Source: a virus (taxonomy: Duplodnaviria; Heunggongvirae; Uroviricota; Caudoviricetes). Taken from it: 19,843 nt of DNA. Each line of letters starts with the position of its first letter. Positions within the stretch are counted from its first letter, which is position 1. Both the position numbers and the translations under genes were made by a program. Positions 1,676 to 19,843 of the stretch are shown piece after piece. Below the pieces are notes generated by a model. The model saw only the letters and a program-made list of their open reading frames with translations. It ran no database searches and was not told the origin of the DNA. The DNA is taken from the IMG/VR virus record IMGVR_UViG_2724679236_000005, positions 1-19,843 of that record; one strand, 5' to 3'.

Positions 1676-1687
1676 TTTATTTGCCTT

Positions 1688-2200: not shown

Positions 2201-2217
2201 ATCAATTCTCCAGATTA

Positions 2218-3717: not shown

Positions 3718-3728
3718 TTATTTTACTC

Positions 3729-4910: not shown

Positions 4911-5529
4911 TAGGTCCTATCTCCACTAACAAACTCACAATTGGCGAGCCTGATATATATAGCCCGCCGTTAATTTTTACACCGCCGTCGCCGTCTGCTG
5001 GGATATTTACGCCTATTTTTGCGTAAGCTGCACCAGCGATATAGAATTCACCGTCAACACTTGTTTCGAAATTTATTTCTTTTAATAAGGAACGACAGTT
5101 TTTTGCATCAAATATTTGTGCAATAAACGTGTTCAATAGTTCTAAATCTAATCCCATGTTTTTTAGCAAGTATATTTTAATTGCGAACGTATACGGGTCA
5201 TCCCTGGGCGTGGCCTCAAACCACTCCCGCATTTTGCTCTCAAACCCTACCGTTAATAACGCGCGTTCGACGGCACCACGCGTTCCACGGTGTTTGTTTT
5301 GCCACGCCGCTGCTTTGATAATTTCGCGTTTTTGCTGCTCGCTCCAGTCCGGGTTCCAGTACGTAACTGCATATTCCCATGCCAGCCACGGCAGCAGATT
5401 TGCAGGGCACAAATCGGGATTCTTAATAATTCGAATATCGCCAGGCAGATCGCCGACGTGAGATAAAACAACTTCCAGCGCTCTCTCGGGGGTTATTGCG
5501 TTCGGAGGCAGTACGCTTTGACTTGTCAT
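4903..5529 (-). CDS. Baseplate/tail protein (P2 gpI-like)
   Basis: 208 aa; motif NPDLCPANLLPWLAWEYAV matches the conserved gpI motif NPDTCPANLLPWLAWA as recalled. Confidence 0.85.
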   Translation of the reverse strand: MTSQSVLPPNAITPERALEVVLSHVGDLPGDIRIIKNPDLCPANLLPWLAWEYAVTYWNPDWSEQQKREIIKAAAWQNKHRGTRGAVERALLTVGFESKMREWFEATPRDDPYTFAIKIYLLKNMGLDLELLNTFIAQIFDAKNCRSLLKEINFETSVDGEFYIAGAAYAKIGVNIPADGDGGVKINGGLYISGSPIVSLLVEIGPNG

Positions 5530-5531
5530 GG

Positions 5532-6452
5532 CTACCCCATTTGCACGCTGAGTTTGATTCCTGTGCAGTGCGGAGCCTGTCCAACGCCAGCAATCACGTC
5601 CTCTGTTGGCGATATCAGAATCACACGCTCAGTGCCGTCACGGTGTATCGCGTCGTAAATTCCTGACAGAGCTGCTGTTGCTCCGATTTTATGCTGCGTG
5701 GCCACGTATATAGCTAAATCGCTCTGAGCACCGTTAAGCAAAACGTTCTGGTCGGGTCCAAGCCCAGCTACGATAACGGCCTCAACCCGGTAATTCAGGT
5801 TCGACGCGGGTTTTACAGTCACGAAATCAGTCAGCGGTCGAGTATCGTCAGGAGACAGGGCCGCATTCACTGTATTCAGTAGTGATTGCGGAGGTGCACC
5901 GTCGCCTGTTCGGGACAAAACGTACATATCGACGTACCCTGGTTGTGTCACCGGCGGTCCGTATGCCTGAGCTGACAGAACGTCGGGATCACTCGATAGC
6001 GCGAAATAGTTATACGCGTTTGTACTGCCAGCAGTATTCCGCGCGTACCACGATAGCTGTATGCGATGACGATACTCGTCGTCACTCTCGTAAACCGCCT
6101 CAGTCGGGGGAATCGCATCACGATTAGCTGGCGTTATCAACAGCCGCAGGCAGTCAAAATTAGCGCCAATCTGGTCGAGGTCCCCCTCTTTTGCAAACGC
6201 GAGTAATACCGCGAGCATCCCCTGATTTACCCGCGCTGTAATGATAATTTCTCTGTATGCAACTATTTCCAGCAGTTTAACGGCCGGGTCTGACTCCAGG
6301 AGTGCGTTAAATTGTGGATATAATATCTGCAGCTCTGACAGTAGATTAGATTTAACATCTGAAAATAGCGGGGTTTTAACAAACGTGGGCGGCGGCAGCA
6401 GACTCATATCAATAGTTTTCACTATCGAATTCTGAACTGTTGATGTTATCAA
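5532..6452 (-). CDS. Baseplate assembly protein (P2 gpJ-like)
   Basis: 306 aa; N-terminal region aligns with P2 J as recalled. The track start is TTG at 6452, overlapping the gpW stop (TTGA); first ATG is codon 16, so the start is uncertain. Confidence 0.85.
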   Translation of the reverse strand: MITSTVQNSIVKTIDMSLLPPPTFVKTPLFSDVKSNLLSELQILYPQFNALLESDPAVKLLEIVAYREIIITARVNQGMLAVLLAFAKEGDLDQIGANFDCLRLLITPANRDAIPPTEAVYESDDEYRHRIQLSWYARNTAGSTNAYNYFALSSDPDVLSAQAYGPPVTQPGYVDMYVLSRTGDGAPPQSLLNTVNAALSPDDTRPLTDFVTVKPASNLNYRVEAVIVAGLGPDQNVLLNGAQSDLAIYVATQHKIGATAALSGIYDAIHRDGTERVILISPTEDVIAGVGQAPHCTGIKLSVQMG

Positions 6453-6790
6453 AATATCAGCTCCATATTATTAAACTCTAATCGCTGTTGTGTTTCGATA
6501 TCTGTTGCGATAATTAATATTGTTATTTTCCCGACATCCACTGCTAACACATTTATTCTGTCAATTCTGACGCGTGGTTCCCAGCGAGCTATTGCGCCAG
6601 CGCTTTCCATGATTATTCGCATAGCAAGCGACGGATCTGTGGGATTATCAACAAGATCAAATAATTTGCTGCCATATTCTGGCAACATTACACGCGTCCC
6701 CAGCGGGGTCGTTAAAATATCAACGATAGACTGACGAATGTGATCAGTCCCCGATAAAGGCTTACCGGTGTTACGGTCCATTCCAAGCAT
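6449..6790 (-). CDS. Baseplate wedge protein (P2 gpW / T4 gp25-like)
   Basis: 113 aa; MLGMDRNTGKPLSGTDHIRQSIVDILTTPLGTRVMLPEYGS aligns closely with the P2 gpW N-terminus as recalled. Confidence 0.9.
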   Translation of the reverse strand: MLGMDRNTGKPLSGTDHIRQSIVDILTTPLGTRVMLPEYGSKLFDLVDNPTDPSLAMRIIMESAGAIARWEPRVRIDRINVLAVDVGKITILIIATDIETQQRLEFNNMELIF

Positions 6791-6792
6791 AT

Positions 6793-7695
6793 TTACGCCA
6801 TTGGTTGGTTCGGTTGTTGTGTTTCCCCATCAGGACATGTGTGAGTGTGTCCGTTGTACGTTGTGCGGACCTCAGTTATTGTGCCTTGTCGGTCCTGCAC
6901 CTCTTGCCCTGCTAACACACTACCGCGAGTTGTGATATTACCTGTTCCACCGTTATCTCCAGTGACAGAAATATCGTTGCGGAATGTCGCCAGTTTATCA
7001 ACAACCAGCGTTTCTGTTATATGCGTTGGACCTGCTAGCGTTATCCCGCCGGGCGCTAATGCTCTTATTGTTTCTGCCGTCAGCGATATACTATTCGCGG
7101 CGGTAACATTTACTGAACTTGTTGCTATTACGTTCACTAAATCAGCGTGCGCGTTAATTGTATCTGTCGCTGTCACGTTAATAACGTCAGCGTCTGCGTT
7201 AATTAATTTTCCGCCGTGAATATTGACAACGTTTTCACTTGTGACCGTAACGTCTGCGCGACCCAAAATTTCTATTTTGGATTCGCCGAGAATTTTTACA
7301 ATTCCTTCTGGTACTCCTTGCCAGATGAGAGTGTGGTTTTCTGTGTTATAGGTTAGCGTTGCGCCGTCACAATATGCGGTGACGTGGTCGTGAGGGTCAG
7401 TACTGGGCGGTGCTTTGTTGTCAATATGTAATCCGAGCATGACGACGCCATTTCGCGTATCTCCCCCCTCAGAAACAACAGTGACTGGGTCGCCAACAGA
7501 TGGGGCGCTCCAGTCCACGCGCTCCGATGTCGCGTGCGTGAACCATTGTAGCCAGCCCGATTGGTGTTCTCCACCAAACGACACGCGACATCTTGGAGGA
7601 TTCATCTGAACTGCAGCTATGGTGCCGCGTTTAACGGAGTCACGCAGCCGGCGAGCGTTCTCCGCGGAGGCGTATTCATCGTCCGATTGGGCCAT
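6793..7695 (-). CDS. Baseplate spike/hub protein (P2 gpV-like)
   Basis: 300 aa; N-terminal CRVSFGGEHQSGWLQWFTHATSERVDWSAPSVGDPV aligns with P2 V; long beta-helix-like repeat region; C-terminal GHTHTCPDG resembles the His-rich spike apex. Confidence 0.85.
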   Translation of the reverse strand: MAQSDDEYASAENARRLRDSVKRGTIAAVQMNPPRCRVSFGGEHQSGWLQWFTHATSERVDWSAPSVGDPVTVVSEGGDTRNGVVMLGLHIDNKAPPSTDPHDHVTAYCDGATLTYNTENHTLIWQGVPEGIVKILGESKIEILGRADVTVTSENVVNIHGGKLINADADVINVTATDTINAHADLVNVIATSSVNVTAANSISLTAETIRALAPGGITLAGPTHITETLVVDKLATFRNDISVTGDNGGTGNITTRGSVLAGQEVQDRQGTITEVRTTYNGHTHTCPDGETQQPNQPMA

Positions 7696-8212
7696 AGTAG
7701 TCGCTCTCGTGTTCTGCGCCGATATCTGGCGCTATTCCGACGTATATATTTTTCAGGGTTCCCTGTGAGGGATAATCGAAAATATCGGGACCAACGCCGA
7801 TAACTTGCGTGAACGACACGCACTGAACTGAATGCGAACCGACTGACTGCCCGTTTTTAATCCAGTCACACGGTTCCGCGTCGCTGAATTTTGCCGGTTT
7901 AGTTCCGGGACCGAACATTCGCCCATTAATCCAGCTCGTCATATAGAGCGCTGCATTTTGCGATTTCAGTCCGTACTGATCAGCTGCAAACTCTCGCAAC
8001 AAATACAAATTACACGACAGCTCGACTGACTGAATTGAGCTTGCAACCGCTTCGTCACTCTGTGACCAGTTGCTGATTTCCAGGAACAGAGCTGGCGTTT
8101 CAAATCCAGCCGGAATTTCTGGATAAATACCGAATGTTTTGATGAACGGTATTTGTAAAACCGCGCCTTTAACGCGATCAAGATATTCGTCAAATGCATC
8201 CAGTCCGCTCAT
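7676..8212 (-). CDS. Hypothetical tail-associated protein (position of a tail completion protein)
   Basis: 178-aa ORF, ATG at 8212 overlapping the upstream stop (ATGA), immediately upstream of gpV; no family recognised by eye. Confidence 0.3.
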   Translation of the reverse strand: MSGLDAFDEYLDRVKGAVLQIPFIKTFGIYPEIPAGFETPALFLEISNWSQSDEAVASSIQSVELSCNLYLLREFAADQYGLKSQNAALYMTSWINGRMFGPGTKPAKFSDAEPCDWIKNGQSVGSHSVQCVSFTQVIGVGPDIFDYPSQGTLKNIYVGIAPDIGAEHESDYYGPIGR

Positions 8213-8889
8213 AATCGTTTCCCTGTTTTTGGGTCTACGTGGACATTACCTTTCACGCGACCACGCAAGTCCTGTTCAAAAAAACCCATGAACACGGTGC
8301 CAATGTTTTCAAAAATATAATCATCGATAGCATCCTCCAGCGCTTCGTGCACCGGTACGCGAGCCTCTTCGATTCCTCCGCGAGCCAGTCGAATCCAGAC
8401 ACTTTTCGCACCGTAGTGTTTCGCTACGAATGAATCGGGCCAGCTCAGCATCGACAGCCCTGCACTTTTGGGTGTAAAAGTTGCCCCTCGAGCGCCTTTT
8501 TTTGTTTTCAAAAATTGACCGGTCTCTGGATTGCGAGGCTGCTTCTGCTTCCTGGGATTTTGTAATCGCCCCTTTAGCTCAGATACACGGAAATCGTTCA
8601 GGCCGTACCAGAGTTTTACGCTACTCAGATCTCCTGCCCCTTCTTTTGTAAAATCGCGGCGCTTAATGAACGGTTTGATTCGTTTATCTACGGCCTTATG
8701 ATTTTTAGCTGCCAGTGCAGTCAAAATCATTCCTGCTGAAATTCGGTGCATATGTTTTGCAGTTCGGTTCAGCGCCCTGTTGTATGCCATTAACATTTGA
8801 TGTTGCGTCGCGCTGATTTCGACTCTGAGCTGCTCCAGCGCCGAAACATCGATATCGAACATCTGCGCGTTACTACGTAAATCGGCCAC
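8209..8889 (-). CDS. Hypothetical virion morphogenesis / tail completion protein (weak resemblance to lambda gpZ)
   Basis: 226 aa; GTG start at 8889 with SD AAGGGGG 4-5 nt upstream (alternative ATG at codon 10); basic-rich, sits right after the FII-like gene where lambda carries Z. Confidence 0.35.
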   Translation of the reverse strand: MADLRSNAQMFDIDVSALEQLRVEISATQHQMLMAYNRALNRTAKHMHRISAGMILTALAAKNHKAVDKRIKPFIKRRDFTKEGAGDLSSVKLWYGLNDFRVSELKGRLQNPRKQKQPRNPETGQFLKTKKGARGATFTPKSAGLSMLSWPDSFVAKHYGAKSVWIRLARGGIEEARVPVHEALEDAIDDYIFENIGTVFMGFFEQDLRGRVKGNVHVDPKTGKRL

Positions 8890-8919
8890 GGTTCCCCCTT
8901 AGTAGGACCGCGGTCCCAC

Positions 8920-9300
8920 TTAGTATTTTGAATACTCGCTGTTTTCGCTGGACGTATGAGGCTCTAAAAAAATATTCGTGAGCCCGACACCGTCTGGCTG
9001 AGACTCTTTAACCACGTAATCGGTCCAGCCAGACCAGGTAACAGAGCCGTCAGGTTCGATGCTGCGCTGCTTTGGAACCCGGACGACGTCACGCGCAACA
9101 ATGCCGGCGACGTCGTCTGAGAGCGCTGTCAGGCTCGTTACTGTACCGGTAATAAAACCAGCGTGAGGAACGTCAACGCGCGCGTAAGGCTCGTTGAAAA
9201 TAGCGATAATGGGGTCGGTTTTACCGCGTAATTTAACGGGCCGTCCCCACTCCAGAATCATCTCCTCATCGCCGGCCCGGAGGTCATCGTAGTAGCTCAT
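8920..9300 (-). CDS. Head-tail joining protein (lambda gpFII-like)
   Basis: 126 aa; moderate similarity to lambda FII in the central and C-terminal segments as recalled; follows the FI-like gene with an ATGA overlap. Confidence 0.6.
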   Translation of the reverse strand: MSYYDDLRAGDEEMILEWGRPVKLRGKTDPIIAIFNEPYARVDVPHAGFITGTVTSLTALSDDVAGIVARDVVRVPKQRSIEPDGSVTWSGWTDYVVKESQPDGVGLTNIFLEPHTSSENSEYSKY

Positions 9301-9710
9301 AGAGCGTAAACGTGATCAGCTGCGATGAGGTCTGCAACCTCTGGTGAATCAACAACAATTTCACGGCCAGCGGCAACAATCTCGCGAACGCGACGCCCGT
9401 TCACGTAGTGATATACATCCAGCGTGTTACGCAGCTTAACGCGGCGCGTAGCGGGAGACAGTTCTGGTTGTGACGTCGTGCTCGCGATTGACGGTTGTTC
9501 TGCGCTGTCATCATCAGTTTCATCTGATGCGTTCGCATTAATGTTGGCATCACTCGCGTCACCGGATTGCTCGTTCAAAATATCGAGCTCTGACTCAGCG
9601 CCAGCGACGATTGATTCCAGTTCAGCAATAGTCCCGCTGCGCGGTAATTCGCGACCGAGCTGAGCGCTCAGATCGTCAATGCGCGCCAGCAATTCTGTTT
9701 TTGTGCTCAT
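9297..9710 (-). CDS. DNA packaging protein (lambda gpFI-like)
   Basis: 137 aa; N-terminus MSTKTELLARIDDLSAQLGRELPRSGTIAELESIV resembles lambda FI MTKDELIARLRSLGEQLNRDVSLTGTKEELALRV; acidic Ser/Asp-rich linker; SD AAGGAAG upstream. Confidence 0.7.
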   Translation of the reverse strand: MSTKTELLARIDDLSAQLGRELPRSGTIAELESIVAGAESELDILNEQSGDASDANINANASDETDDDSAEQPSIASTTSQPELSPATRRVKLRNTLDVYHYVNGRRVREIVAAGREIVVDSPEVADLIAADHVYAL

Positions 9711-9721
9711 GTTGCTTCCTT

Positions 9722-9746
9722 AACAAAAAAGAGCCTTTCGGCTCTT
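9722..9746 (-). terminator. Intrinsic terminator-like hairpin just after the major capsid gene
   Basis: Minus-strand RNA UAAGAGCC-GAAA-GGCUCUU followed by UUUUUUG: 7-bp stem, GNRA loop, U-tract; the stem includes the capsid stop codon. Confidence 0.6.
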
Positions 9747-10779
9747 ACGCGATTTTTACGACAACGAACGCGTCGGCATCCGTGAGGACCATTGCTGGCG
9801 CGGATTGCGTCATTGTTTGCGTCACTGCCGGATCGCCAGTAGTGGTCCAGACTTTTGGATAGCGCGTCGCTTCGCTGATACCCTCTTTCAGCGCGTCCTC
9901 GTCCTGGATCGCGCCGTAGGTGCGGAGTCCGCGATTTTTTGTGTTGCCCAGGATCATCGTGTTATCCGGCATATAACGCGTTTCAGTGCCTGTTACCGGG
10001 TCGATGTACTGCCCCTTATAGACGAACAGCGCCGTGTCGCCGTAATACCCTTTAAAGCTCACAACGTCGCCCAGGTTTTTCAGCGCGACTTCGAGCTGGC
10101 TGTTTGAGCCGCGGCGCGTATCCAGTGCCGTCCAGAATTTTTTAAAGCGTTTAAGCTGCTTCCAGGCTTTACCGTCCATGATGATCACGTTAACAGCACC
10201 GGAGGCGAGGTCTGCATAGGATTCGATATCGTCGCTCGGGTCATACGTTTCCGCGTCCTGCGTAGACCAGGCTGTCGAACCAGACTGAGTGACGTTATTC
10301 GTCGCGCTGCGGCTCATGTCGATCTCATAGGTCTCGATATTGCTGCCGGAAACTGTGTATTTACCGTACAGAACCGCCTGCACAGCCTGAAATTCTTCGA
10401 GCTGACTGATACTGAGCTCCTCATCAAGCAGGTTCTGCATGATGATTTTTGCACGACGTTCGACCGGTGTTTCCGGCTGGCCAATCTGCTCTCCGGCGGC
10501 GCGCTTGATGCTCATATTCGGATTGATCGTGTGTTTGGGTTTCGTGTAACCCGGCTTAAAATGGTTAGTTGAATAGCCGCGGGTGCGATCTACTTTGCCG
10601 GTGATCATCGGCGCGCAATACACCGCCATATTGACCTTACCCGGGATTTTATCCAGAAAAACCTCTTCGCTCGTAAACGTGTAGGTCTCACGGAAAAACA
10701 GTCTTAAAAACAACGGATTGAACTTAAATACCTGCTGTGTCGCGGTAATCAATTCTGACGTAGTAAACGAATCGCTCAT
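9745..10779 (-). CDS. Major capsid protein (lambda gpE-like)
   Basis: 344 aa; extensive similarity to lambda E as recalled (FKFNPLFLRLFFRETYTFT, PGYTKPKHTINP, RRAKIIMQNLLDEEL, TRYPKVWTTTGDPA). Confidence 0.95.
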   Translation of the reverse strand: MSDSFTTSELITATQQVFKFNPLFLRLFFRETYTFTSEEVFLDKIPGKVNMAVYCAPMITGKVDRTRGYSTNHFKPGYTKPKHTINPNMSIKRAAGEQIGQPETPVERRAKIIMQNLLDEELSISQLEEFQAVQAVLYGKYTVSGSNIETYEIDMSRSATNNVTQSGSTAWSTQDAETYDPSDDIESYADLASGAVNVIIMDGKAWKQLKRFKKFWTALDTRRGSNSQLEVALKNLGDVVSFKGYYGDTALFVYKGQYIDPVTGTETRYMPDNTMILGNTKNRGLRTYGAIQDEDALKEGISEATRYPKVWTTTGDPAVTQTMTQSAPAMVLTDADAFVVVKIA

Positions 10780-10795
10780 TTAGATATCCTGTATA

Positions 10796-10818
10796 AAAAA
10801 AACCGCCCGGAGGCGGCT
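10796..10818 (-). terminator. Hairpin plus U-tract between the decoration and capsid genes (putative attenuator)
   Basis: Minus-strand RNA CCGCC-UCCG-GGCGG followed by a run of 8-9 U, 20 nt upstream of the capsid start. Confidence 0.5.
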
Positions 10819-10837
10819 TGTTTTGAGTTTTTTGCTA

Positions 10838-11167
10838 TCAGCCGACGCTGACAGGCGTACCAGCAAACGCTGATTTGCGTTTAGCTACGTCGGTAACCGT
10901 ACCCCAGTTAATCGCCGTGTAACGGAACGAGCCTGATTTATAGTACGAGCAGTCTGCAGAACTGGAGCCAGTATTAACTGCGGTGGCAGTGAGGCCAATA
11001 GCTTTACCGACTGAGCCGTCCCAAACCTTAAACGTCCCGACAGTAGCGTCGAGCATAATCGGTGTCAGCCGGGGTACGTTGATCCCGCCCTGAAAATGAC
11101 CGACGGTCGTAACAACAAGATCGGGTCCCAGAATAAAATCATCCGGGCTATACGTTTCTGTGGTCAT
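10838..11167 (-). CDS. Head decoration protein (lambda gpD-like)
   Basis: 109 aa; LTPIMLDAT...FKVWDG...YYKSGSFRY...KRKSAFAGTPVSV mirrors lambda D motifs as recalled. Confidence 0.9.
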   Translation of the reverse strand: MTTETYSPDDFILGPDLVVTTVGHFQGGINVPRLTPIMLDATVGTFKVWDGSVGKAIGLTATAVNTGSSSADCSYYKSGSFRYTAINWGTVTDVAKRKSAFAGTPVSVG

Positions 11168-11574
11168 TATTCATCCCCTAAAATTGAACGCCCTGCAGCA
11201 ACCAGCATCGAGACGTTTGCGGCTGTTCCTGTTGCCGTGGTGCTGCCGGCATCCTGAATAGTTTCCGGTGATTCAGTGCTCATGAGTGTATCGAGCGCCG
11301 TTTCTGTCCGCGCCTGCGCTGTTTGCGGTGCTGCCGCGAGGACCACCTGCGCCTGCTCGAGCGTCATCCCGGGGACGCCAGCGAGCGCTTTTGCCTGCGC
11401 CTCGCGCCCAACAGCTTCGGGACAGTTGATGATGGCCATCACGCGTGCCAGTTCGCTCGATGCGGCGTCCGCGCGAATCTGCTCCGCTTTGGACTCAACC
11501 GGCGCGGCCGTAGTCGTAGCCGCGGTTTGTTCTGTGGTCGTGGTCTCCGCCGTGGTTTCTGTTGTACCTGGCAT
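11167..11574 (-). CDS. Putative nested in-frame scaffolding protein (lambda Nu3-like internal start within gpC)
   Basis: In-frame ATG at 11574-11572 (MPGTTETTAETTTT...) preceded by GGAG 7 nt upstream, at the position where lambda Nu3 starts inside C; sits at a Thr-rich linker. Confidence 0.45.
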   Translation of the reverse strand: MPGTTETTAETTTTEQTAATTTAAPVESKAEQIRADAASSELARVMAIINCPEAVGREAQAKALAGVPGMTLEQAQVVLAAAPQTAQARTETALDTLMSTESPETIQDAGSTTATGTAANVSMLVAAGRSILGDE

Positions 11575-12477
11575 AAATCGCTCCATTTTTGGTTTCAGTG
11601 CGTCGGCCATCACTGCGATAGCGTCCGCGTAATTAACGAGTTGATCAGCGAGACCAGATTTAATCGCGTCCGCGCCGATAAATACTGCGGCCTCTGTGGC
11701 CAGCACCCTGGATTTTTTCAGCCCGGTATAATCCGAGACTTTTTGCGCGAACTGCTCGCGTGTGCTGTTAATACTCAGCTGGAATTCGTCGCGAACGTCG
11801 TCGGGCAGCTGGGAATACGGGTTCCCGTCGACTTTGTGCGCGCCGGCGTAAATCAGCGTCACGTCAACGCCGGCAATCTCCAGCGCCTTTTCGACGCAGC
11901 GGTGAGCCATCAGGACACCGATTGAACCAACCGTGCCGGTCTGCGTTATCAGCCGGCGCGAACACGCTGACGCCAGCAAATAGGCGGCGCTGCAGGCCGT
12001 ATCGCTGGCCAGCGCCCACACCGGTTTTTGCTCTCGCGCCCGGGCGATTAAATCAGCGGTATCAAACGCGCCGGCGACCTCACCACCTGGGGAGTCAATA
12101 TCCAGCAAAATCCCCTTAACATCGGGATCAGAAATCGCCTGCTGCAGGCGTTTTACGATTCCGTCGTAACCGCTCATACCGCTAACCGGATTGATATAAC
12201 CCAATTTATGAACCAGTGTCCCGGTAACCGGCAGAACAGCTATACCACGCTCCACGCGGTACGATTTCTGACGTGTTCGCTCGCTGCTGTCCCACCCCAT
12301 CGCGAGGGCGTTCATTTCGTCGCTGTTCATTACCTCTCCAGACGCTGTATCAATCAGTCGCCCGGTACCGAACCGGTCGCTCAGCGCAGAAAAAAATACC
12401 CGCGCGTAGGCGGGCTCCAGCAAAAGCGGTTGATTGAACGCCCTGGCGGCGAGGTGCGGAAAATTGTTCCACGGCAT
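11167..12477 (-). CDS. Head maturation protease / scaffold fusion (lambda gpC-like, S49-type)
   Basis: 436 aa; aligns along its length with lambda C as recalled (NQPLLLEPAYARVFF, GIAVLPVTGTLV, KPVWALASD, GSIGVLMAH, YAGAHKVDGNPYSQLPDDVR, AIINCPEAVGREAQAKALAGVPGMT). Confidence 0.9.
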   Translation of the reverse strand: MPWNNFPHLAARAFNQPLLLEPAYARVFFSALSDRFGTGRLIDTASGEVMNSDEMNALAMGWDSSERTRQKSYRVERGIAVLPVTGTLVHKLGYINPVSGMSGYDGIVKRLQQAISDPDVKGILLDIDSPGGEVAGAFDTADLIARAREQKPVWALASDTACSAAYLLASACSRRLITQTGTVGSIGVLMAHRCVEKALEIAGVDVTLIYAGAHKVDGNPYSQLPDDVRDEFQLSINSTREQFAQKVSDYTGLKKSRVLATEAAVFIGADAIKSGLADQLVNYADAIAVMADALKPKMERFMPGTTETTAETTTTEQTAATTTAAPVESKAEQIRADAASSELARVMAIINCPEAVGREAQAKALAGVPGMTLEQAQVVLAAAPQTAQARTETALDTLMSTESPETIQDAGSTTATGTAANVSMLVAAGRSILGDE

Positions 12478-14051
12478 CAGTTACCTCCCCAGCCGTTATC
12501 GTTGGTATTTGAGGGGTGAGATACAGACCATGACGGTTCGCTCAGCCCCATTTCACGCCGGCGCTGAATTTCGTATTCCTGTTGCTCCATAACCTCCTCG
12601 TAATCCTGTCCCTGCAGCGCCAGTTCGTTCTGATACGTGCTGAGGCCAGTTGTGATACGCATTGCACTCTCCTGAACCTCTTTCAGTCCGTCGATGGCCA
12701 TGCGACCTGCACCGATCCAGAGCGCGTTCGTCCAGGAGTTCCGCGCTTCATAAAATGACCGGACAGCTGAGCGAGGCAGAGTGATAATCCCGCGCGCCAG
12801 CGCCTCCTCAAACCAGCAGCAGAACATCAGCGACGCCTGCCGCGCGGCGATAAAACGTCTGCGCCCCATAAAAAACCGCCAGCTCACGTTCGCGCTGGCC
12901 CGGGCGCTGGAGTAACTGACCTGGCTGTAGTCCCGGCTCAGTTCCTCGTATGACGCGCCGACGCCGGCGGCAACGTAACGCAGGAGTGATTTTTCCAGCG
13001 AACTGAAACCAGCGTCAGCGTTCTGAGCGGTCTGTAAACTGAGTTTGTCGCCGGGGTGCAGGTGAGGGACTTTCACGCCGCCTAATTTAATGTTTGCGCC
13101 GTTGTAGTACGTCACGTAACTCTGAATAAACGAATTCAGTGGGTTCGAGTCGATATCAGTACCCGCGCCGGCGATATATTCAAACGCCTGCTGACTGTCG
13201 AGCTCTGATTCGATTGTCGCGGCGTACATGGCCTTAACAATCGCGCTCTGCAGCTGTGTTTGCTGCAGTGTGTCGAGCATTTTCAGGCGCTCCATGACGC
13301 TGTAAAAAATATTGTCCCCGCGGGTCTGTCCGTCCTCGAGCGGCTCGAATATGTGGATGAATGCGTGTCTGCCGCTGCTGAGCTGTGCTGGGATACGCCG
13401 GCATTTACCGACTCCGCCGAGAGGGTAAGTATCCTCGGCTATCCAGTACCCGACCGCGGCCCCGTTTTTATCGATATCAACACCGGCGCGGCGAAATTGA
13501 GTGTCAGCTGCGTAACCCGGATTTCGAATCCGTTTCGGTGAGACCATTTTGAATCGCGTCCGAAAAACGCTGCCGGCACTACTCTCCCAGACTGGTTGTA
13601 CGCAGGTTTCACCGTTGAAAGCGTGAGTAGCCACGCCCTCGCGGATCATCATTGTGAACGTCCGTTTCCGCTCGATATCAATCGTGCAGTGAGGGTCCTC
13701 GGCGTATTCAGTCCACGCTACCTCGACGTCACGCGCCAGCGCCCTGGCGTCCTCGCGAGATATGCCGAGGTAACGCCAGTTAGGGCGATAACTCAACTTA
13801 AACAGATTGCCGACGATATGATCCTGGTGCAGTTGCACGGCGTTCGACGCGACGCCGTTATTGCGAACGAGATCGTCTGCTCGCGCGTTACCGCGATAAA
13901 AATTCGGCAACAGTGCTGCGTCGGCGCTCTGCTGTGGTGCGTTCCAGTCAATCAGCTGGCCACCGAAACCGGGACCGCCGCCGTTATACCCCGCGTAACG
14001 GCGTAGTGGCGTTTTACCGTCAGGCCCGAGCAGCTGCTGCGGAGCAGTCAT
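12477..14051 (-). CDS. Portal protein (lambda gpB-like)
   Basis: 524 aa; N-terminus LLGPDGKTPLRRYAGYNGGGPGFGGQL...AALLPNFYRGNARADDLVRNNG...QLHQDHIVG is near-colinear with lambda B as recalled. Confidence 0.95.
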   Translation of the reverse strand: MTAPQQLLGPDGKTPLRRYAGYNGGGPGFGGQLIDWNAPQQSADAALLPNFYRGNARADDLVRNNGVASNAVQLHQDHIVGNLFKLSYRPNWRYLGISREDARALARDVEVAWTEYAEDPHCTIDIERKRTFTMMIREGVATHAFNGETCVQPVWESSAGSVFRTRFKMVSPKRIRNPGYAADTQFRRAGVDIDKNGAAVGYWIAEDTYPLGGVGKCRRIPAQLSSGRHAFIHIFEPLEDGQTRGDNIFYSVMERLKMLDTLQQTQLQSAIVKAMYAATIESELDSQQAFEYIAGAGTDIDSNPLNSFIQSYVTYYNGANIKLGGVKVPHLHPGDKLSLQTAQNADAGFSSLEKSLLRYVAAGVGASYEELSRDYSQVSYSSARASANVSWRFFMGRRRFIAARQASLMFCCWFEEALARGIITLPRSAVRSFYEARNSWTNALWIGAGRMAIDGLKEVQESAMRITTGLSTYQNELALQGQDYEEVMEQQEYEIQRRREMGLSEPSWSVSHPSNTNDNGWGGN

Positions 14052-14281
14052 AATCGAACTCCCACGGGCCGACGGCGTCCCGTACTCAGACCGAGCTGTG
14101 ATTTCAGCTCGATAATGTACGTTCGGAGCTGCTCAATACTCGCCTGCGAGTATTGATAGCTCCGGTTATTTCCTGCTGAATCGCCGTGAGACAGCGACAC
14201 GGTCGATTTACCCGTTAATAATTTGTGCAGAGCGATTTCCGCTTCCAGCAGTCGTTCTGTTAAAACCTCGCGCGACGTCAT
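14048..14281 (-). CDS. Head-tail joining / head completion protein (lambda gpW-like)
   Basis: 77 aa; EAEIALHKLLTGK...LRTYIIELKSQLG...RRRPVG matches lambda W motifs (AAARAALHDLMTGK...KYIAELEVQTG...RRRGPAG) as recalled. Confidence 0.85.
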   Translation of the reverse strand: MTSREVLTERLLEAEIALHKLLTGKSTVSLSHGDSAGNNRSYQYSQASIEQLRTYIIELKSQLGLSTGRRRPVGVRL

Positions 14282-16242
14282 TAGCTCCCTCCGAGCATTC
14301 TGGCCATCTCCTCGAGAGACAGTTTGTTTTGTGATTTTTTCCGTTGCTCAGCGAGCGTCTCGAGATTGAGCTGAAAACGAATTTTACTGATACGCAGCGC
14401 CGCCAGTCCGTACACCCAGCAGTCGAGCGCTTCATTTCGCCGGCCCTGATTGTCCCAGCGATAAACGACGCGACCGTTAATGAGTTTTGGGATCAGAACT
14501 TCGGAGACGAGCTGTTTTGCCTCTGTCGTGCCGAATATTTCATCGTCATTGGGAAAATGAATTGCGCCCGGTGTCGCCGATTTAGGGTCGGGTTCCAGCG
14601 GCAGACGCATCGCGAGCAAATCTTTTGCCGTATCAGTACCGATTAACGATAAATAAACTTTATTCGCGTTACGGGTACGCGGCATATTTACGACCGGCTG
14701 GCCGTATGAGCTCGCGCCTTTGATCGGAATGACCCACAGCGGACCGAGTTTGAGCGAGCGGTTATAAACGACCTGCGCGTCTATACCACCGGTATCCCAC
14801 GCCCAACGACTGACGCCGATTGTGGTCCCGTCGCTGCGCTGGTATTGTTTACGAATCACTCCGTCGACGCGCTGCAGCGTGTCCTCCTCGTCGTAGCGAC
14901 CGAGGACGATTGTTTTATCAATCAGCCAACACTCCTCCTCAGATCCCCAGCCCCACACGTAACACTCGTAGCGCCCGGACGTCTGAGAGTCGATGCCGCC
15001 GGTTATATAAACAACACCGTCAGGAACCTGGCTGGCGTATTTTTCCCGGCGATTAACGAGAATATCGTGCTCCAGCTGCTCGCTGGCCACGTCGCTCCAG
15101 AGCTCGCCGAGCGTCGTGTTATGAAACGTTTTTTCTTTGAGTGGGTCGCCTTTCGCTTTCAGCCACTCGCTGACAATCTCGCCCCAGCCGTCGAGATTCA
15201 GTGAATACAGGGCGTTTATCACGATCGCCGCGTGTTTCGGCGCGCGAACGACACCACCGTCGTGATCAAAAAAATGAATACCGTCCCGCGTCCAGGTGCA
15301 GTCCTCTGCTATCCAGCGCCCCGCGAGCTCCATTTTTTCGAGATCGCGATAGTAAAAATGCTCCGGGCAGTGGCAGCACTGGTAATACGCGGACGACGAT
15401 CTCGCCTCATTTGTCTGCAGGCTGTTATCCCATTTGAGGCCATATTCGATGCCGTCGAAACCAAATACCAGGACCTGCTCCTCGCCACAATGCGGACACT
15501 TCAGGTAAAAACGAAACGTCAGATCGGCAGCGTCTTCGAGCATTTCTATATGGCTTTTACCGGTGACTGTCGGTGTCGAACCGAAAATTGCCTTCGGGTA
15601 CGCTGCCCCTTTAATTCGAACGAGCGCAAGCTCGATTGGCGAGCCCTCGCCTTTGCCTTTTTTGGCAACTTCCAGCGGCCAGCCGTCGACCTCGTCACCC
15701 TCGACAACCTGTTTCGTTAGTCGCCGGAAATTTCCTGGCGTACTCGCGCCGCGAAAATCAATAATCGCGCCGTTCATTTCTTTACGCTGGAGATTGTTAC
15801 GCTCGTTGCTTTTATCCCAGTCGGGGAAAATTTTCTGAATCACCGGCATTTCGGCGATAGCGGGGTCAACCTCGTCGGCGACAAATCCATCCGATTCGTC
15901 ATCGATAGGCTGATAGACCACGGCACTACGTTTTTTGTGCTCAGCGAAATAGAGCAGCGCCGCGACGAGTATTTTTGTATAACCGAGACGAGCTGATTTG
16001 CGAACAGACACTATTTTTATCGCGTCGTTTGTCATCATATTCAACATCACAATCTGGACCGGCTGAGTCGTCCAGTGACCCGCAATATGGCTGGAGCCTT
16101 CGGGGAGGTAAAAATATTTATCAGCCCACTCAACCCCCGTCATCGGTATCGTCACGCGCAAGGGATTCAACCCTGTCGAGATCGCGTTCGATATCGCTGA
16201 CATCGTAATCGCTGAAGTCGACTCGTATGTCTGCCAGTTCAT
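14281..16242 (-). CDS. Terminase large subunit (lambda gpA-like)
   Basis: 653 aa; VEWADKYFYLPEG, VRKSARLGYTK, EGSPIEL, GSTPTVTGKS, CPHCGEEQ are all colinear with lambda A motifs as recalled. Start uncertain: track start 16242 overlaps terS by 113 nt; in-frame Met codons also at 16203 and 16143. Confidence 0.95.
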   Translation of the reverse strand: MNWQTYESTSAITMSAISNAISTGLNPLRVTIPMTGVEWADKYFYLPEGSSHIAGHWTTQPVQIVMLNMMTNDAIKIVSVRKSARLGYTKILVAALLYFAEHKKRSAVVYQPIDDESDGFVADEVDPAIAEMPVIQKIFPDWDKSNERNNLQRKEMNGAIIDFRGASTPGNFRRLTKQVVEGDEVDGWPLEVAKKGKGEGSPIELALVRIKGAAYPKAIFGSTPTVTGKSHIEMLEDAADLTFRFYLKCPHCGEEQVLVFGFDGIEYGLKWDNSLQTNEARSSSAYYQCCHCPEHFYYRDLEKMELAGRWIAEDCTWTRDGIHFFDHDGGVVRAPKHAAIVINALYSLNLDGWGEIVSEWLKAKGDPLKEKTFHNTTLGELWSDVASEQLEHDILVNRREKYASQVPDGVVYITGGIDSQTSGRYECYVWGWGSEEECWLIDKTIVLGRYDEEDTLQRVDGVIRKQYQRSDGTTIGVSRWAWDTGGIDAQVVYNRSLKLGPLWVIPIKGASSYGQPVVNMPRTRNANKVYLSLIGTDTAKDLLAMRLPLEPDPKSATPGAIHFPNDDEIFGTTEAKQLVSEVLIPKLINGRVVYRWDNQGRRNEALDCWVYGLAALRISKIRFQLNLETLAEQRKKSQNKLSLEEMARMLGGS

Positions 16243-16696
16243 TCAGGGCTATCGCCAGCTCCTCTCGTAATACACTGCTCGCCTCCTGCGGCATTTCAGG
16301 CCACACCTTTTTCAATCGTGGTGGCCATGACTCGACGCGGGTACGTAATTCAACGGCGACGCGAGATACAGCGACGCTAATTAATTCAATTGGCGCGTAA
16401 CGTTTAGCGAGAATGCGGCGTTTTACTCGTGCCATCAGGATTCGCTCCTGTCGTTCCTCATTTTTCAGCCACTGCTCGCGATTTTTTTCGGGAGAATTGT
16501 CCCCCACTTCCGGTTCGTCTGTACCAATTGTGTCGCGTCTATTGCTCCGGAGATAACGAATATAAAAATGGCGCCATGCGTCAAGTTCCCAATCGCCACG
16601 TCCTTGGGGGACTGGAGCTCCCGGAAGTTTTGCGAGATCGCGCAGACGACGATCAGATAGCAGTAAATGTGCTGCGACCTCAGCCTGACTTGCCAT
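16130..16696 (-). CDS. Terminase small subunit (lambda Nu1-like, N-terminal HTH)
   Basis: 188 aa directly upstream of and overlapping terL; N-terminal LSDRRLRDLAKLPGAPVPQGRGDWELDAWRHFY resembles the Nu1 DNA-binding region; SD GAGGA 7 nt upstream of ATG 16696; cos-like sequence immediately upstream. Confidence 0.7.
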   Translation of the reverse strand: MASQAEVAAHLLLSDRRLRDLAKLPGAPVPQGRGDWELDAWRHFYIRYLRSNRRDTIGTDEPEVGDNSPEKNREQWLKNEERQERILMARVKRRILAKRYAPIELISVAVSRVAVELRTRVESWPPRLKKVWPEMPQEASSVLREELAIALNELADIRVDFSDYDVSDIERDLDRVESLARDDTDDGG

Positions 16697-16699
16697 TAA

Positions 16700-16810
16700 A
16701 AATCCTCACCGGAACCGGAAATACCCAAAATGAAAAAATACTAAAAATGAGTGAGTTTTTGCGCGTCTACCGACCCTCGGTGTTTTGGATTTCGGAAAGG
16801 ACCCGCGACC
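16700..16810 (-). other. Putative cohesive-end site (cosQ-like, cosN-like dyad, cosB-like region) upstream of terS
   Basis: Minus strand carries CGGGTCCTTTCCG (16805-16793), identical to the 13-mer in the lambda right-end cosQ region as recalled, then ~18 nt later the dyad ACCGAGGGTCGGT (plus 16769-16781), then an AT-rich stretch ending TATTTCCGGTTCCGG next to the terS start. Confidence 0.5.
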
Positions 16811-17050
16811 AGAGAGGCTATCTCCCTTTCAGGACAGGAATCGGGGGCTCGCATCAGGTTCATCAAACTCAACTGTAGCCTCGCGACGTACTTGTTTGCA
16901 TACCTCAGCTTTGTGTATCTGATTATCAGCGTAAGCTTTCACTTTGGCAGCGAGCCATCCTTTTGCGCTGTATCGATAGATTACCGAACAAGTTTTCGAT
17001 ATATGTATATATCTTGAACTTATTGATATCCTTACAGAAAAACAACAGCC

Positions 17051-17311
17051 ATGAGCACACAAAAAATGAACAGAGAAAAAATTGAAGCCTTAATGAGCGT
17101 AATATTAAAAGAAGCTGACCCAAAAAAGTTTCCTGAGAAGTTATCAGAGGACGCCGTCGTATCTTTTTATCGTGCGAACTCCTCTTATCTACATTGTCCA
17201 ACTTTAAGAGAATGGTTAAGCGGCGAAGCAGAGCCTTCAGATGAGATACTTGAGGAGATTATGGTTCAGAACAACTGGCGCGCAACTAAATGGTCAAATC
17301 GGTTACCTTAA
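17051..17311 (+). CDS. Hypothetical small acidic protein (accessory/moron gene)
   Basis: 86-aa ORF opposite in orientation to the flanking late genes, downstream of an AT-rich region (16880-17050); weak SD; no family recognised. Confidence 0.45.
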   Translation: MSTQKMNREKIEALMSVILKEADPKKFPEKLSEDAVVSFYRANSSYLHCPTLREWLSGEAEPSDEILEEIMVQNNWRATKWSNRLP

Positions 17312-17579
17312 CCTGTTGAATGTGTGCCGCCTTGAAACAAAAAGGCGACCTCTCATTTAAGTAAAACGTCTCTTACATCAGGTACCAGCTCTTTGGCACA
17401 TTGCGCAGTTGTTTTTTATACGTCGGCGAGCTGTTGCGAAGCTCAGTCCCTGCGCGTCACACCATTCTTTCGGTGATACACATGATTTGACGTACTCGGA
17501 CAGGAATCGCTTCTGAAGCTCAAGCCCAGTCCCGGTTTGCTCATGTAATTAAATCCTACTGTATTCTCATGGTGCCCAG

Positions 17580-17921
17580 ATGTCGTCTATGCTTTTAACT
17601 CGAACATTCAATGAAGAGAAATGCTCTATGGTTATTGGTATGCAGGAATCAAAAAATTGCCCTGTATGCGGCTCTGATGCCACATGGACAAATCACGATA
17701 CGTGCTGGAAAATTCATTGCAGTGGTTTTTGCGGTGATTTTTTAATCACAACCACTACGATAAATTATCTGAAGGGCGATGCACTAAGGCGTCTTGATGC
17801 CAACGATCTCTTAAGAGAGCCAACAACACTCAAGACACCTTTAACAAACAAAATCCTTGCTGAATATGCTCGTACAAAATATCCCGTGCACATCTTTGAA
17901 GGTCACTATCCGGGCTATTAG
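17580..17921 (+). CDS. Hypothetical Cys-rich (zinc-ribbon-like) protein
   Basis: ORF with CPVCG...C-x4-C-x3-C cluster; more likely start is ATG at 17628 (GAAGAG upstream) than 17580; stop overlaps the convergent minus-strand ORF by 3 nt. Confidence 0.45.
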   Translation: MSSMLLTRTFNEEKCSMVIGMQESKNCPVCGSDATWTNHDTCWKIHCSGFCGDFLITTTTINYLKGDALRRLDANDLLREPTTLKTPLTNKILAEYARTKYPVHIFEGHYPGY

Positions 17922-18196
17922 TCAGTGCTAGTAACTTTCGGAATAGGAGAAATTTTAGATGTGTGATAATTCATCTCGTCGATAGTCTGAGGAATTAACT
18001 CACTCGCGCCATTTGCAACTGCAACGCGATAATGCGGTCCATTCCATCGACTAAAATCGGAGCGTTCATAAATTACCACCTCATCCCCCACAGAAACCCT
18101 TAACTCCGTGCTACCTACGGGTTCAATAGCGGAATTAGAATAAATGTCTTCAACACGACCGTGAAAAGGCCCACCAACGAACAAAAACTGTGACAT
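17918..18196 (-). CDS. Hypothetical protein
   Basis: 92-aa ORF; ATG at 18196 with AGGA 8 nt upstream; no TMD, no recognised motif. Confidence 0.45.
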   Translation of the reverse strand: MSQFLFVGGPFHGRVEDIYSNSAIEPVGSTELRVSVGDEVVIYERSDFSRWNGPHYRVAVANGASELIPQTIDEMNYHTSKISPIPKVTSTD

Positions 18197-18334
18197 ATAA
18201 TTTCCTATTAAAAAATAACCAGTTAAATCGGCATTTAAAAATATGTCATATTTATGATTCTGTCTTTAGCACCTTTGTGTGGTCAGGTTGCCTGGGCCAA
18301 ATGATCAATCATCAATTCATTAAGATAAATTACC

Positions 18335-18529
18335 CTATTTTCCAACAGGGCATGAAGCCACTGCCCCAGTTGAATCAATACAACCACCGTCCGCAGTGGT
18401 AATTTTCGTACCCGGCGCGATCATCACGTGTTTAATACTGCTGCCGTCAGCGCGAGTCGCTTCGGTGTATGTCGAATGTGTGCAGCCTGCCAGCGTGAAG
18501 AACGCGACAGCTAAGAGAAGTTTTTTCAC
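18335..18529 (-). CDS. Small outer-membrane lipoprotein in the lysis cassette (possible o-spanin-like or Bor/Cor-like)
   Basis: 64 aa; GTG start 7 nt after the endolysin stop with AGGT upstream; signal peptide MKKLLLAVAFFTLAG-C with lipobox LAGC and Thr at +2; two further Cys in the mature part. Confidence 0.6.
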   Translation of the reverse strand: MKKLLLAVAFFTLAGCTHSTYTEATRADGSSIKHVMIAPGTKITTADGGCIDSTGAVASCPVGK

Positions 18530-18536
18530 GTTTTAC

Positions 18537-19016
18537 CTACGCTTCTGAGATAGATTTCTCAGCATTCACCAATGGAAGTGATTGTGGAACATCCGTTTGA
18601 CCTGCTGGCCAGCGATAGCCTGTTACGCGGGAACGAGGAAAAGCTTTGATATTTACTTCATCTGCCTGGTTACCACCCAAAATCATTAAATCCCCGGCGG
18701 CATTTTTCCCGACAACAAAGCCAACGTGACCACCGCCAGACCGAGACAGAATAGCAATGCATCCATAGGCGGGTTCCTTCAGTTCATTACCCCAATCGAG
18801 ATAAGAATTCGCAGACTCAAAACGCGTTGAGCGAATACCCGCACGTTCCAGCATTGCCCCGGTGAAAGCAGCGCACCACGGTGTTTCGTCATCCTTAATG
18901 CCGCCGCGTTTGATATCTTTCCAGTACTGCACAATTTCTGCAGCATGTTGCTTCCCTTTCATTTCCCGAATGCCGAGGTTTTTTCGAGCCTCAATTAGCC
19001 ATTTCGGATCGGTCAT
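18537..19016 (-). CDS. Putative endolysin, Cys/His peptidase type (CHAP/NlpC-P60-like, TIGR02594-like)
   Basis: 159 aa; candidate catalytic Cys in ETPWCAAFTG and His in GGGHVGFVVG; no signal peptide or TMD; sits after two membrane proteins. Confidence 0.6.
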   Translation of the reverse strand: MTDPKWLIEARKNLGIREMKGKQHAAEIVQYWKDIKRGGIKDDETPWCAAFTGAMLERAGIRSTRFESANSYLDWGNELKEPAYGCIAILSRSGGGHVGFVVGKNAAGDLMILGGNQADEVNIKAFPRSRVTGYRWPAGQTDVPQSLPLVNAEKSISEA

Positions 19017-19288
19017 TACCTGTCTCCTGTTATTTTTGAAATATTTCCTCGTGCCCGCCAGACAGCAATACAGATGGTGAGATTGAGAAAGAACTCTGCG
19101 GGATCAACCTGCGTATATTTTCCGTATAAAATTCGTAGGGCTATCCAAGCAGCAGACAGAATCGCCAGGTAAGCAGTTAGTGAGATAAAAAAACGATAGC
19201 GGCCTGTTTTTTGAAAAAACATCAACCGTAGTGCCAACATCAGACAGATAATTGCATTGGCATTGATGAGGACAGAGTGCAGGGTCAT
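19016..19288 (-). CDS. Small membrane protein with three predicted TMDs (holin or antiholin-like)
   Basis: 90 aa with three hydrophobic segments; ATG overlaps the upstream stop; directly upstream of the endolysin gene. Confidence 0.5.
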   Translation of the reverse strand: MTLHSVLINANAIICLMLALRLMFFQKTGRYRFFISLTAYLAILSAAWIALRILYGKYTQVDPAEFFLNLTICIAVWRARGNISKITGDR

Positions 19289-19671
19289 TATTTCATCCCC
19301 TTATCTGATTTCCATAAACGAGCTTGTGACATGATCCGCAACAGTGATGTAACGCTGATTACTGATGCAACCAGTGCACCAATGGCGGGAGATACTTTTA
19401 CTGTTATGGGTGGGTTCAGGTGACTCAGCGCCGCATTCAGAATACCGGTAATGATGGCTGATGCTGTTTCAGCGCAATACACACCACCAACAAACGAAAT
19501 GAGTGCGAAAATAACCTGCTTCCAGAATCGATGCTGCCCAGACGACAACACATAGAGAGCTGCGCCTGCCAGCGCACAGATCATCACTGCAGGTGTTGCC
19601 TCAGGAAATAACGCAGCAAACGTCACCCCCGCCGAGCCAGCAGCAACGCCAGCGGTTAGAGGTTCAGACAT
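19288..19671 (-). CDS. Holin-like membrane protein (first gene of the lysis cassette)
   Basis: 127 aa from ATG 19671 (SD AGGA 8 nt upstream), 3-4 hydrophobic helices, charged C-terminal tail. The track ORF to 19839 uses a GTG inside the terminal repeat and is judged an over-extension. Confidence 0.6.
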   Translation of the reverse strand: MSEPLTAGVAAGSAGVTFAALFPEATPAVMICALAGAALYVLSSGQHRFWKQVIFALISFVGGVYCAETASAIITGILNAALSHLNPPITVKVSPAIGALVASVISVTSLLRIMSQARLWKSDKGMK

Positions 19672-19685
19672 GATTTTTCCTGATT

Positions 19686-19715
19686 CAGAAACGACAAAAC
19701 CCCGCCGTGGCGAGG
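19686..19715 (-). terminator. Putative intrinsic terminator/attenuator in the leader upstream of the holin gene
   Basis: Minus-strand RNA CCUCGC-CACG-GCGGGG (6-bp stem with one G-U) followed by UUUUGUCGUUUCUG, ending 14 nt before the holin SD; position analogous to lambda tR' between pR' and S. Confidence 0.35.
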
Positions 19716-19783
19716 TTCTTAGGGATTTGGCAACATACCAAATTAGCGTTAAATATGGCCTATTTTGTTCGGTTTTGCAAGTA

Positions 19784-19841
19784 TTTGTATGGGTCCACCA
19801 CATATTGCAATTTTTGTTCTCTCTTAAAATATATTCCACGG
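19784..19841. repeat. Right arm of the perfect 58-bp terminal inverted repeat (partner 1-58)
   Basis: Exact reverse complement of 1-58; lies in the putative late leader/promoter region upstream of the holin gene. Confidence 0.9.
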
Positions 19842-19843
19842 GT

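Follow-up and report, generated by a model that had tools for sequence, protein, structure and literature searches.

A probable lambda-type cos site with an N15-like cosB layout in a common Escherichia coli prophage

Introduction

Among the closest described counterparts of the site considered here are the cos sites of phages lambda and N15. In lambda, cosQ is the signal for packaging termination, cosN is a partly symmetric site nicked with a 12-bp stagger, and the cohesive end's left half is under selection. The lambda cosB is complex and consists of three R repeats and a site for IHF, in the order R3-I1-R2-R1. The lambda R3 repeat occupies bp 50-65, TerS contacts bp 55-63 within it, and the nick lies 47 ± 2 bp from R3 (PMC9026076). 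Both the 7-bp cosQ sequence GGGTCCT and the CG dinucleotides at the nick flanks have been described as highly conserved (Feiss et al., 2015, PMC4669245). N15 has a simple cosB, with R3 at bp 48-59 upstream of terS and an inverted copy, termed rR2, at bp 249-260 (Feiss et al., 2015, PMC4669245); these coordinates were checked on NC_001901.

Here we describe a site of this kind in a stretch of 19,843 nucleotides of viral DNA, which was analysed as a whole and is referred to as the window (positions 1 to 19,843 of IMG/VR record IMGVR_UViG_2724679236_000005). The segment from about 16805 to 16709, together with a remote element at 16519..16504, is very likely the cos of a temperate phage that combines a lambda-type head and packaging module with a contractile tail. 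Judged by its sequence, it is very probably a lambda-type cos of a common E. coli prophage, laid out like that of N15 rather than like that of lambda, and an element of an ordinary kind. The coordinates of its parts are collected in Table 1, where bp are counted from the first base of the predicted cohesive end towards terS. A slash within a sequence marks a nick, here and in the text.

Table 1. Features of the predicted cos site and the adjoining terminase genes in the window.
Feature	Window coordinates	Strand	bp from predicted nick	Remarks
13-mer CGGGTCCTTTCCG	16805..16793	-		same as lambda J02459 48472..48484; includes cosQ
cosQ core GGGTCCT, 7 bp	16804..16798	-		inside CGGGTCCTTTCCG
Predicted cosN, AG/GGTCGGTAGACG/CG	16777..16762	-		homology, symmetry, R3 distance
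Predicted 12-nt 5′ cohesive end, 5′-GGTCGGTAGACG-3′	16775..16764	-	1-12
cosN-R3 spacer	16763..16726	-	13-50	conserved CGCAAAAA, then phased T-tracts at bp 29, 38 and 46
R3-like presumptive TerS site ATTTCCGGTTCCGG	16722..16709	-	54-67	likeness to lambda R3, conservation
terS, 188 aa, phrog_57	16696..16130	-		ATG at 16696
Inverted R3-core copy GACGAACCGGAAGTGG	16519..16504	-	257-272	within terS; cf. N15 rR2
Inverted core GAACCGGAA	16516..16508	-	260-268	within terS
terL, gpA-type (ATPase and endonuclease)	16242..14281	-		longest ORF 653 aa

Terminase genes and their surroundings

The large terminase subunit encoded next to the site belongs to the gpA family. It matches the Pfam families GpA_ATPase (E = 1e-46) and GpA_nuclease (E = 3e-63), and its identity is 43% to lambda gpA along the whole protein (645 aligned residues, E = 3e-170) and 53% to the TerL of phage phiARM81ld. 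The start of the terL open reading frame at 16242 is probably over-extended, with the true start at Met34 (16143): the first residues that align with gpA and with phiARM81ld TerL are 14 and 34, and record ON470624 annotates a start equivalent to Met34, which leaves a 14-nt overlap with terS.

The terS product was recognised by neither Pfam nor NCBIfam and found nothing in a sequence search of the PDB, and BLASTP comparison with Nu1 gave a weak similarity in the C-terminal half (E = 2e-4). A single-sequence AF2 model of TerS was unusable (pLDDT 42.6); a model built with an alignment of 18 homologues, of moderate confidence overall, reached a pLDDT of 83-86 in the N-terminal domain. A Foldseek search of the PDB with the TerS model returned no significant match, the matches being consistently MerR-type winged helices, and the modelled N-terminal domain superimposes on the DNA-binding domains of lambda-type TerS proteins. 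As modelled, TerS would carry a winged helix-turn-helix domain of the Nu1 type.

The head module continues downstream on the minus strand, where TerS and TerL are followed by gpW, a lambda-family portal, an S49 protease and the major capsid protein. After it come contractile-tail genes, including those for the sheath (phrog_23), the baseplate and the tail fibre (window 1394-10779, minus strand), and a holin and an endolysin are encoded upstream of cos. The combination of a lambda-type head and packaging module with contractile-tail genes points to a mosaic myovirus. Between the lysis cassette and cos lies a pair of genes on the opposite strand (17051-17921, plus strand), encoding an 86-aa protein of phrog_5191, a family of unknown function, and a 113-aa protein with a sub-threshold match to Lar restriction alleviation; the pair resembles an insertion of the moron type.

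The region is 96% identical to Escherichia phage vB_EcoM-705R4 (ON470624), and the element occurs in 444 of 5,426 complete E. coli genomes (~8%), always in the chromosome. The cos site is unannotated in the records inspected.

cosQ and the left edge of the site

The minus strand of the region reads GCGGGTCCTTTCCGAAATCCAAAACACCGAGGGTCGGTAGACGCGCAAAAACTCACTCATTTTTAGTATTTTTTCATTTTGGGTATTTCCGGTTCCGGTGAGGATTTTTAATG. It includes the 13-mer CGGGTCCTTTCCG, which a sequence-only reading of this DNA had equated with a 13-mer of the right-end cosQ region of lambda. The identification was correct: lambda (J02459) contains the identical 13-mer 18 nt short of its right end. The agreement is well beyond chance: allowing even one mismatch, the 13-mer has a single match in the whole window, with 0.02 expected. 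Similarity to the lambda cos region ends there. When 16900..16690 was aligned locally to the circularised lambda cos junction, the 13-mer alone came back, with a score of 26 that equals the best shuffle, so the site in the window is not a close copy of lambda cos.

The cosQ core within the 13-mer is unchanged in all seven of the relatives aligned. Taken on its own, the 7-bp sequence is not significant, because it occurs twice in the window (13693, plus strand; 16804, minus strand). The second occurrence, at 13693-13699, is within the portal gene, where the surroundings are not cos-like, and this number of occurrences is about that expected by chance for a 7-mer. From cosQ to the predicted nick the window has 22 nt, compared with 23 nt from cosQ to the top-strand nick in lambda, phiARM81ld, Vibrio phage Valp1 and two further loci (L036 and L085). 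The homology between relatives begins exactly at cosQ, and the DNA directly upstream is unrelated between lineages (window 16806-16850 compared with L019-L023 and L028), which marks the left edge of cos as a mosaic junction.

Physical ends of related phages

Searching by tblastn with TerS as the query retrieved Aeromonas and Vibrio phages that have terS right at one extremity of a linear record, and the record ends of phiARM81ld, PhAER-1, PhAER-5 and Valp1 served as the reference for the 12-nt ends of the window. From about 16777 to terS, the window aligns with phiARM81ld from base 1 onward, with a score of 78 compared with 16.5 ± 2.3 for shuffled sequences. The phiARM81ld record ends in ...ATGGGTCCT(23 nt)GCG and starts with GGGCGTTAGACC/CGCATG, and PhAER-1 and PhAER-5 have the 12-mer GGGCGTTAGACC at both record ends. 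In Valp1 (OR500391), the 12-mer GGGGCATGACCT is present at both termini, joined to sequences that we take to be Illumina adapters: on the left ...CTCTTCCGATCT is fused to GGGGCATGACCT, and on the right GGGGCATGACCT is fused to AGATCGGAAGAGCACACGTCTGAA. When 12-nt 5′ overhangs are filled in, the 12-mer becomes doubled at adapter-ligated ends, while end repair removes a 3′ overhang. The doubled and adapter-fused 12-mer of Valp1 is thus as expected for filled-in 5′ overhangs. In PhAER-1, PhAER-5 and Valp1, the 12-mer doubled at the two record ends occupies the position homologous to 16775..16764 in the window.

Some of these records merit a comment of their own. The deposited 'complete genome' of Vibrio phage Vb_VaM_Valp1 (L082 42000-42988 and L083 1-400) retains its adapters, a contamination that maps the physical termini. 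Aeromonas phage PCAh2 (L033, PQ314494 39500-41000), a partial genome in which cos is internal, reads TTGCG-CGTTAGACC at the junction, without the GGG of phiARM81ld and PhAER-1; the difference may stem from misassembly or from a genuine loss of 3 nt. The phage record ON470624, which is near-identical, covers an arbitrary stretch of 27 kb whose ends do not fall at cos. Of the 45 IMG/VR contigs with the cosN core, none starts or ends at the nick, and two (L054 and L059) end 23-27 nt upstream; many of the 45 bear identifiers in the style of isolate genomes and may therefore be prophage-derived and uninformative on ends. A literature search found no paper on the PhAER phages, and phiARM81ld is said to be the subject of a paper by Dziewit and Radlinska from 2016.

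The predicted cosN and its cohesive ends

Towards terS, the predicted terminus reads 5′-GGTCGGTAGACGCGC from 16775, and on the opposite strand it reads 5′-CGTCTACCGACCCTC from 16764. The centre of symmetry of cosN falls between 16770 and 16769. In this register, 8 of the 16 bp of cosN obey rotational symmetry, compared with 6 of 16 in either register displaced by one base, by a count that reproduces the published value of 10/16 for lambda. The symmetry element in the window is G.GGTC-N4-GAC.C. Its pairs G(-1)/C(+1) and G2/C11 are common to the window, lambda, N15, phiARM81ld and Valp1, as is the CGC directly after the 12-mer. A MAFFT alignment places CCGAG/GGTC of the window against TTGCG/GGGC of phiARM81ld and CCACG/GGGG of Valp1, with a gap of 1 nt between cosQ and cosN.

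Compared with the lambda 12-mer, GGTCGGTAGACG matches at 6 of 12 positions, five of the six in the left half and one of the six in the right half. The two 12-mers are bridged by a locus with a 73% identical TerS (L084), whose GGGCGGTAGACG joins the lambda left half to the window right half. A second locus (L085, TerS 64% identical) has cosQ followed after 23 nt by GAG/GGTGCGCGCACG/CGC, a near-palindrome with the same centre, and a third (L036) has CACG/GGTCTGGGGACG/CG, with the GGTC...GACG core and a 23-nt cosQ spacing. SerU-LTIIb has the same cosN core, and its I2 segment aligns to phi80 free of gaps, placing bp 1 at the G of GGTC.

The cosN of the window is flanked by CG on the right and by AG on the left, and in many loci that have the same core the left flank is GG. 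Going by these loci, AG or GG at the left flank is natural variation that recurs consistently, and not damage peculiar to the window.

The cohesive end is given here as a prediction, in a register that could be 1 nt off. A real cos nicked one base to the right, with the cohesive end 5′-GTCGGTAGACGC (16774..16763), would restore the 23-nt distance from cosQ that is seen in lambda, phiARM81ld, Valp1, L036 and L085. We consider this register improbable, however, because it lowers the symmetry to 6/16 bp and does away with both the CGC that is conserved behind the 12-mer and the G(-1)/C(+1) pair. In L036 and L085, which share the GGT...ACG core, a nick directly ahead of GGT gives the 23 nt, and the single-nucleotide gap in the MAFFT alignment falls between cosQ and cosN, where it argues against the shifted register. 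Moreover, the position of the lambda nick is set by the distance from R3, at 47 ± 2 bp, and not by cosQ (Higgins and Becker, 1994, cited in PMC9026076). The register starting at 16775 is the one used below.

A dyad had also been noted some 18 nt beyond the 13-mer. The sequence, ACCGAGGGTCGGT (16781..16769, minus strand; 5-bp arms with a 3-nt spacer), is present, but it starts 11 nt past the 13-mer, with its centre 17 nt past it, and it is neither a conserved element nor the centre of cosN. When 5-bp arms and loops no longer than 10 nt are considered, the 111-bp stretch has two dyads, compared with 0.99 expected (P = 0.25), and relatives retain just one to four of the five arm pairs. The left arm belongs to the flank that is conserved on the left side of cosN, and the right arm corresponds to bp 3-7 of the cohesive end, overlapping the variable tetranucleotide at bp 5-8; the dyad is centred on 16775, at the predicted nick, and off the centre of cosN. 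At chance frequency, unconserved and centred on the nick, it was rejected as a symmetry element of cosN or a protein-binding site.

cosB: the spacer, R3 and an inverted copy within terS

The spacer between cosN and R3 stands at the position of lambda I2, and its phased T-tracts may have a role in DNA bending. No IHF consensus was found in the spacer or upstream of terS within one mismatch. The sequence TATTTCCGG at 16723..16715 lies ahead of the terS ATG, and together with the T-tracts it bears out the AT-rich segment that had been reported beside terS.

The R3-like site is presumptively bound by TerS. Its bp 55-60 read TTTCCG, as in lambda R3 in sequence and register alike, and its distance from the predicted nick is the canonical one. 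The sequence ATTTCCGGTTCCGG is kept in relatives from Escherichia, Enterobacter, Aeromonas, Vibrio and Microbulbifer. Between the cohesive end and the terS ATG there are just 67 bp, with a single R-like site among them. The start of terS is at bp 80 in the window, at bp 79 in phiARM81ld, bp 70 in Valp1 and bp 89 in N15, compared with bp 191 in lambda. The arrangement is therefore not the complex lambda cosB with three R repeats and an IHF site, and agrees with the simple N15-type cosB, in which one R3 lies upstream, terS starts less than about 90 bp from the end and an IHF site is lacking.

A second R3-like element is found about 200 bp downstream, where terS contains an inverted copy of the R3 core. 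It recurs at bp 250-272 in the Enterobacter, Aeromonas, Vibrio and Microbulbifer relatives and in IMG/VR loci, while the flanking codons diverge, and only one other 12-nt window of terS is better conserved between lineages (0.815 for the copy, compared with a mean of 0.53 over the gene and 0.37 over third positions). Codon shuffles reached the observed match length in 3.5% of cases for the window and in 0.14% for phiARM81ld. The copy falls in a linker of TerS that is disordered in the AF2 model and rich in indels, and it encodes Glu-Pro-Glu, a peptide whose conservation is not fully separable from that of the DNA.

Two relatives depart from this arrangement. In a locus of the Klebsiella aerogenes type (L085, 1320-1500), R3 (CCATTTCCGCTTCCGC) and an inverted element (AAGCGGAAATGGG) are both upstream of terS, with ~45 bp of AT-rich DNA between them, and terS is without the intragenic inverted copy; the locus has the look of a naturally occurring intermediate between the simple cosB layout and the complex one. 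In Enterobacter mori (L028), terS (from 3001) is cut to 86 aa by a frameshift, with cosQ, cosN and R3 intact, and this is probably a decaying prophage.

Functional interpretation

By analogy with these systems, TerS would bind R3 and probably also the inverted copy inside its own gene, at bp ~260. Its binding would position a symmetric pair of nuclease centres of the gpA-type TerL on cosN, and TerL would nick the two strands 12 bp apart to generate the 5′ extension GGTCGGTAGACG. Packaging would then proceed in the direction of terS, towards lower window coordinates, until at the next cos on the concatemer cosQ and cosN signal termination.

The sequence-only reading had predicted cos packaging with 5′ cohesive ends and had placed the end of the virion chromosome inside the window, and both predictions gain support from the gpA-family TerL, the invariant cosQ, the ends of the relatives (with the alignment to base 1 of phiARM81ld and the doubled 12-mers) and the R3 distance. 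It is highly improbable that the block is instead a relic cos-like sequence in a packaging-defective prophage, or serves mainly to regulate late or terS expression; the prophage is chromosomal in its 444 E. coli carriers and may be inactive, and the Enterobacter mori locus (NZ_GL890776) keeps its cos sequence beside a truncated terS, but terS, terL, gpW and the portal, protease, capsid and tail genes are all intact open reading frames in the window, a 96%-identical sequence was deposited as phage vB_EcoM-705R4, and an invariant cosQ, symmetric cosN arms with a free centre and an R3 at fixed distance fit a terminase substrate, not a promoter.

As a cos, the site fixes the probable virion ends, and hence which way the genome is oriented and in which direction it is packaged, for a prophage of ~8% of complete E. 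coli genomes. Its coordinates can be used in cos-plasmid transduction tests and for spotting cos-dependent satellites that borrow the cosN of the window, and the natural variants described here offer material for testing how the small terminase subunit positions the nuclease.

A wider generalisation seems plausible, if still tentative. The simple cosB of the N15 type, so far known from N15 and a few prophages, may be the standard form for a separately diverged TerS family of Escherichia, Enterobacter, Aeromonas, Vibrio and Microbulbifer, comprising one R3 and an inverted copy in the codons of the disordered TerS linker; the inverted site may be under selection at the DNA level and movable, as it lies upstream of terS in the Klebsiella aerogenes relative; and the GGTC-N4-GACG cosQ-cosN with its free central tetranucleotide may be a cassette exchangeable among unrelated cosB/TerS modules. 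Modestly new in this are the cassette with its variable centre, the AG or GG left flank, and the occurrence of R3 with an intragenic inverted site in a second TerS lineage, to which the simple cosB of N15 is extended. Part of this novelty may already be catalogued; Vahanian et al. are said to have treated the natural history of cosN in 2017.

Comparison with known systems

With lambda, the window shares the 13-mer that includes cosQ, a gpA-type TerL, a partly symmetric cosN with a 12-bp stagger followed by CGC, the TTTCCG at bp 55-60, and the order of lysis genes, cos, terS, terL, W and portal. It differs from lambda in the left flank of cosN, which is AG and not CG, in a cosQ spacing of 22 and not 23 nt, in a terS that starts more than 100 bp closer to the end, in having neither an R2/R1 pair nor an IHF site upstream of terS, and in a TerS too diverged for Pfam and NCBIfam.

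The likeness to N15 is one of layout. Both sites have one upstream R3 (~bp 48-67), no IHF site and a terS within 90 bp of the end (N15 89, window 80), and in both an inverted R3 copy lies ~200 bp downstream in terS (N15 bp 249-260, window bp 260-268); position 12 of the cohesive end is G in both, followed by CGCA. The R3 sequences themselves are unrelated, however, with GAGGTTGTTGTT in N15 and ATTTCCGGTTCC in the window, so that a packaging specificity different from that of N15 is expected. Furthermore, the C-terminal half of N15 TerS is close to Nu1, whereas the window TerS is not, and N15 is a siphovirus with a lambda-like tail and a linear-plasmid prophage, whereas the phage in the window has a contractile tail and is chromosomally integrated.

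The phages with mapped ends, phiARM81ld, PhAER-1, PhAER-5 and Valp1, belong to the same TerS family (46-57% identical to the window TerS), and share with the window a collinear series of cosQ, 12-mer, CGCA, T-tracts, TTTCCGGTT(C or T)CCG and an ATG at bp 70-80, as well as the intragenic inverted copy. They differ in their 12-mers (GGGCGTTAGACC in phiARM81ld and the PhAER phages, GGGGCATGACCT in Valp1), in having CG at both nicks, and in the 23-nt cosQ spacing. In addition, phiARM81ld has reportedly been studied as a plasmid-like prophage, whereas the element of the window is chromosomal in all 444 of its E. coli carriers.

A different kind of resemblance is seen in SerU-LTIIb, a classical lambdoid, and ~25 IMG/VR prophages. 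Their cosQ-cosN segment, CGGGTCCTTTC..AAACACCG(A or G)G/GGTC NNNN GACG/CGCAAAAA, is nearly identical to that of the window, but it stands beside a lambda-like I2 (CGCTATTTATGAAAATTTTCAGG), multi-repeat cosB of several types and a close homologue of Nu1. The central bp 5-8 vary between cos cores that are otherwise near-identical (L035-L079), with GGTA, GGGA, CCAG, TGCA, TGGG and AGAG among more than ten variants; in the IMG/VR search the pattern itself imposed the GGTC and GACG arms, whose conservation is borne out independently by the loci that were retrieved with TerS. In one lambdoid locus (L079) the 12-mer is exactly that of the window, yet cosB and TerS are different. The presence of the same cosQ-cosN beside different cosB and TerS, in the SerU-LTIIb group and in L079, indicates that the cosQ-cosN module has been exchanged as a unit, as a cassette passed between different TerS/cosB modules.
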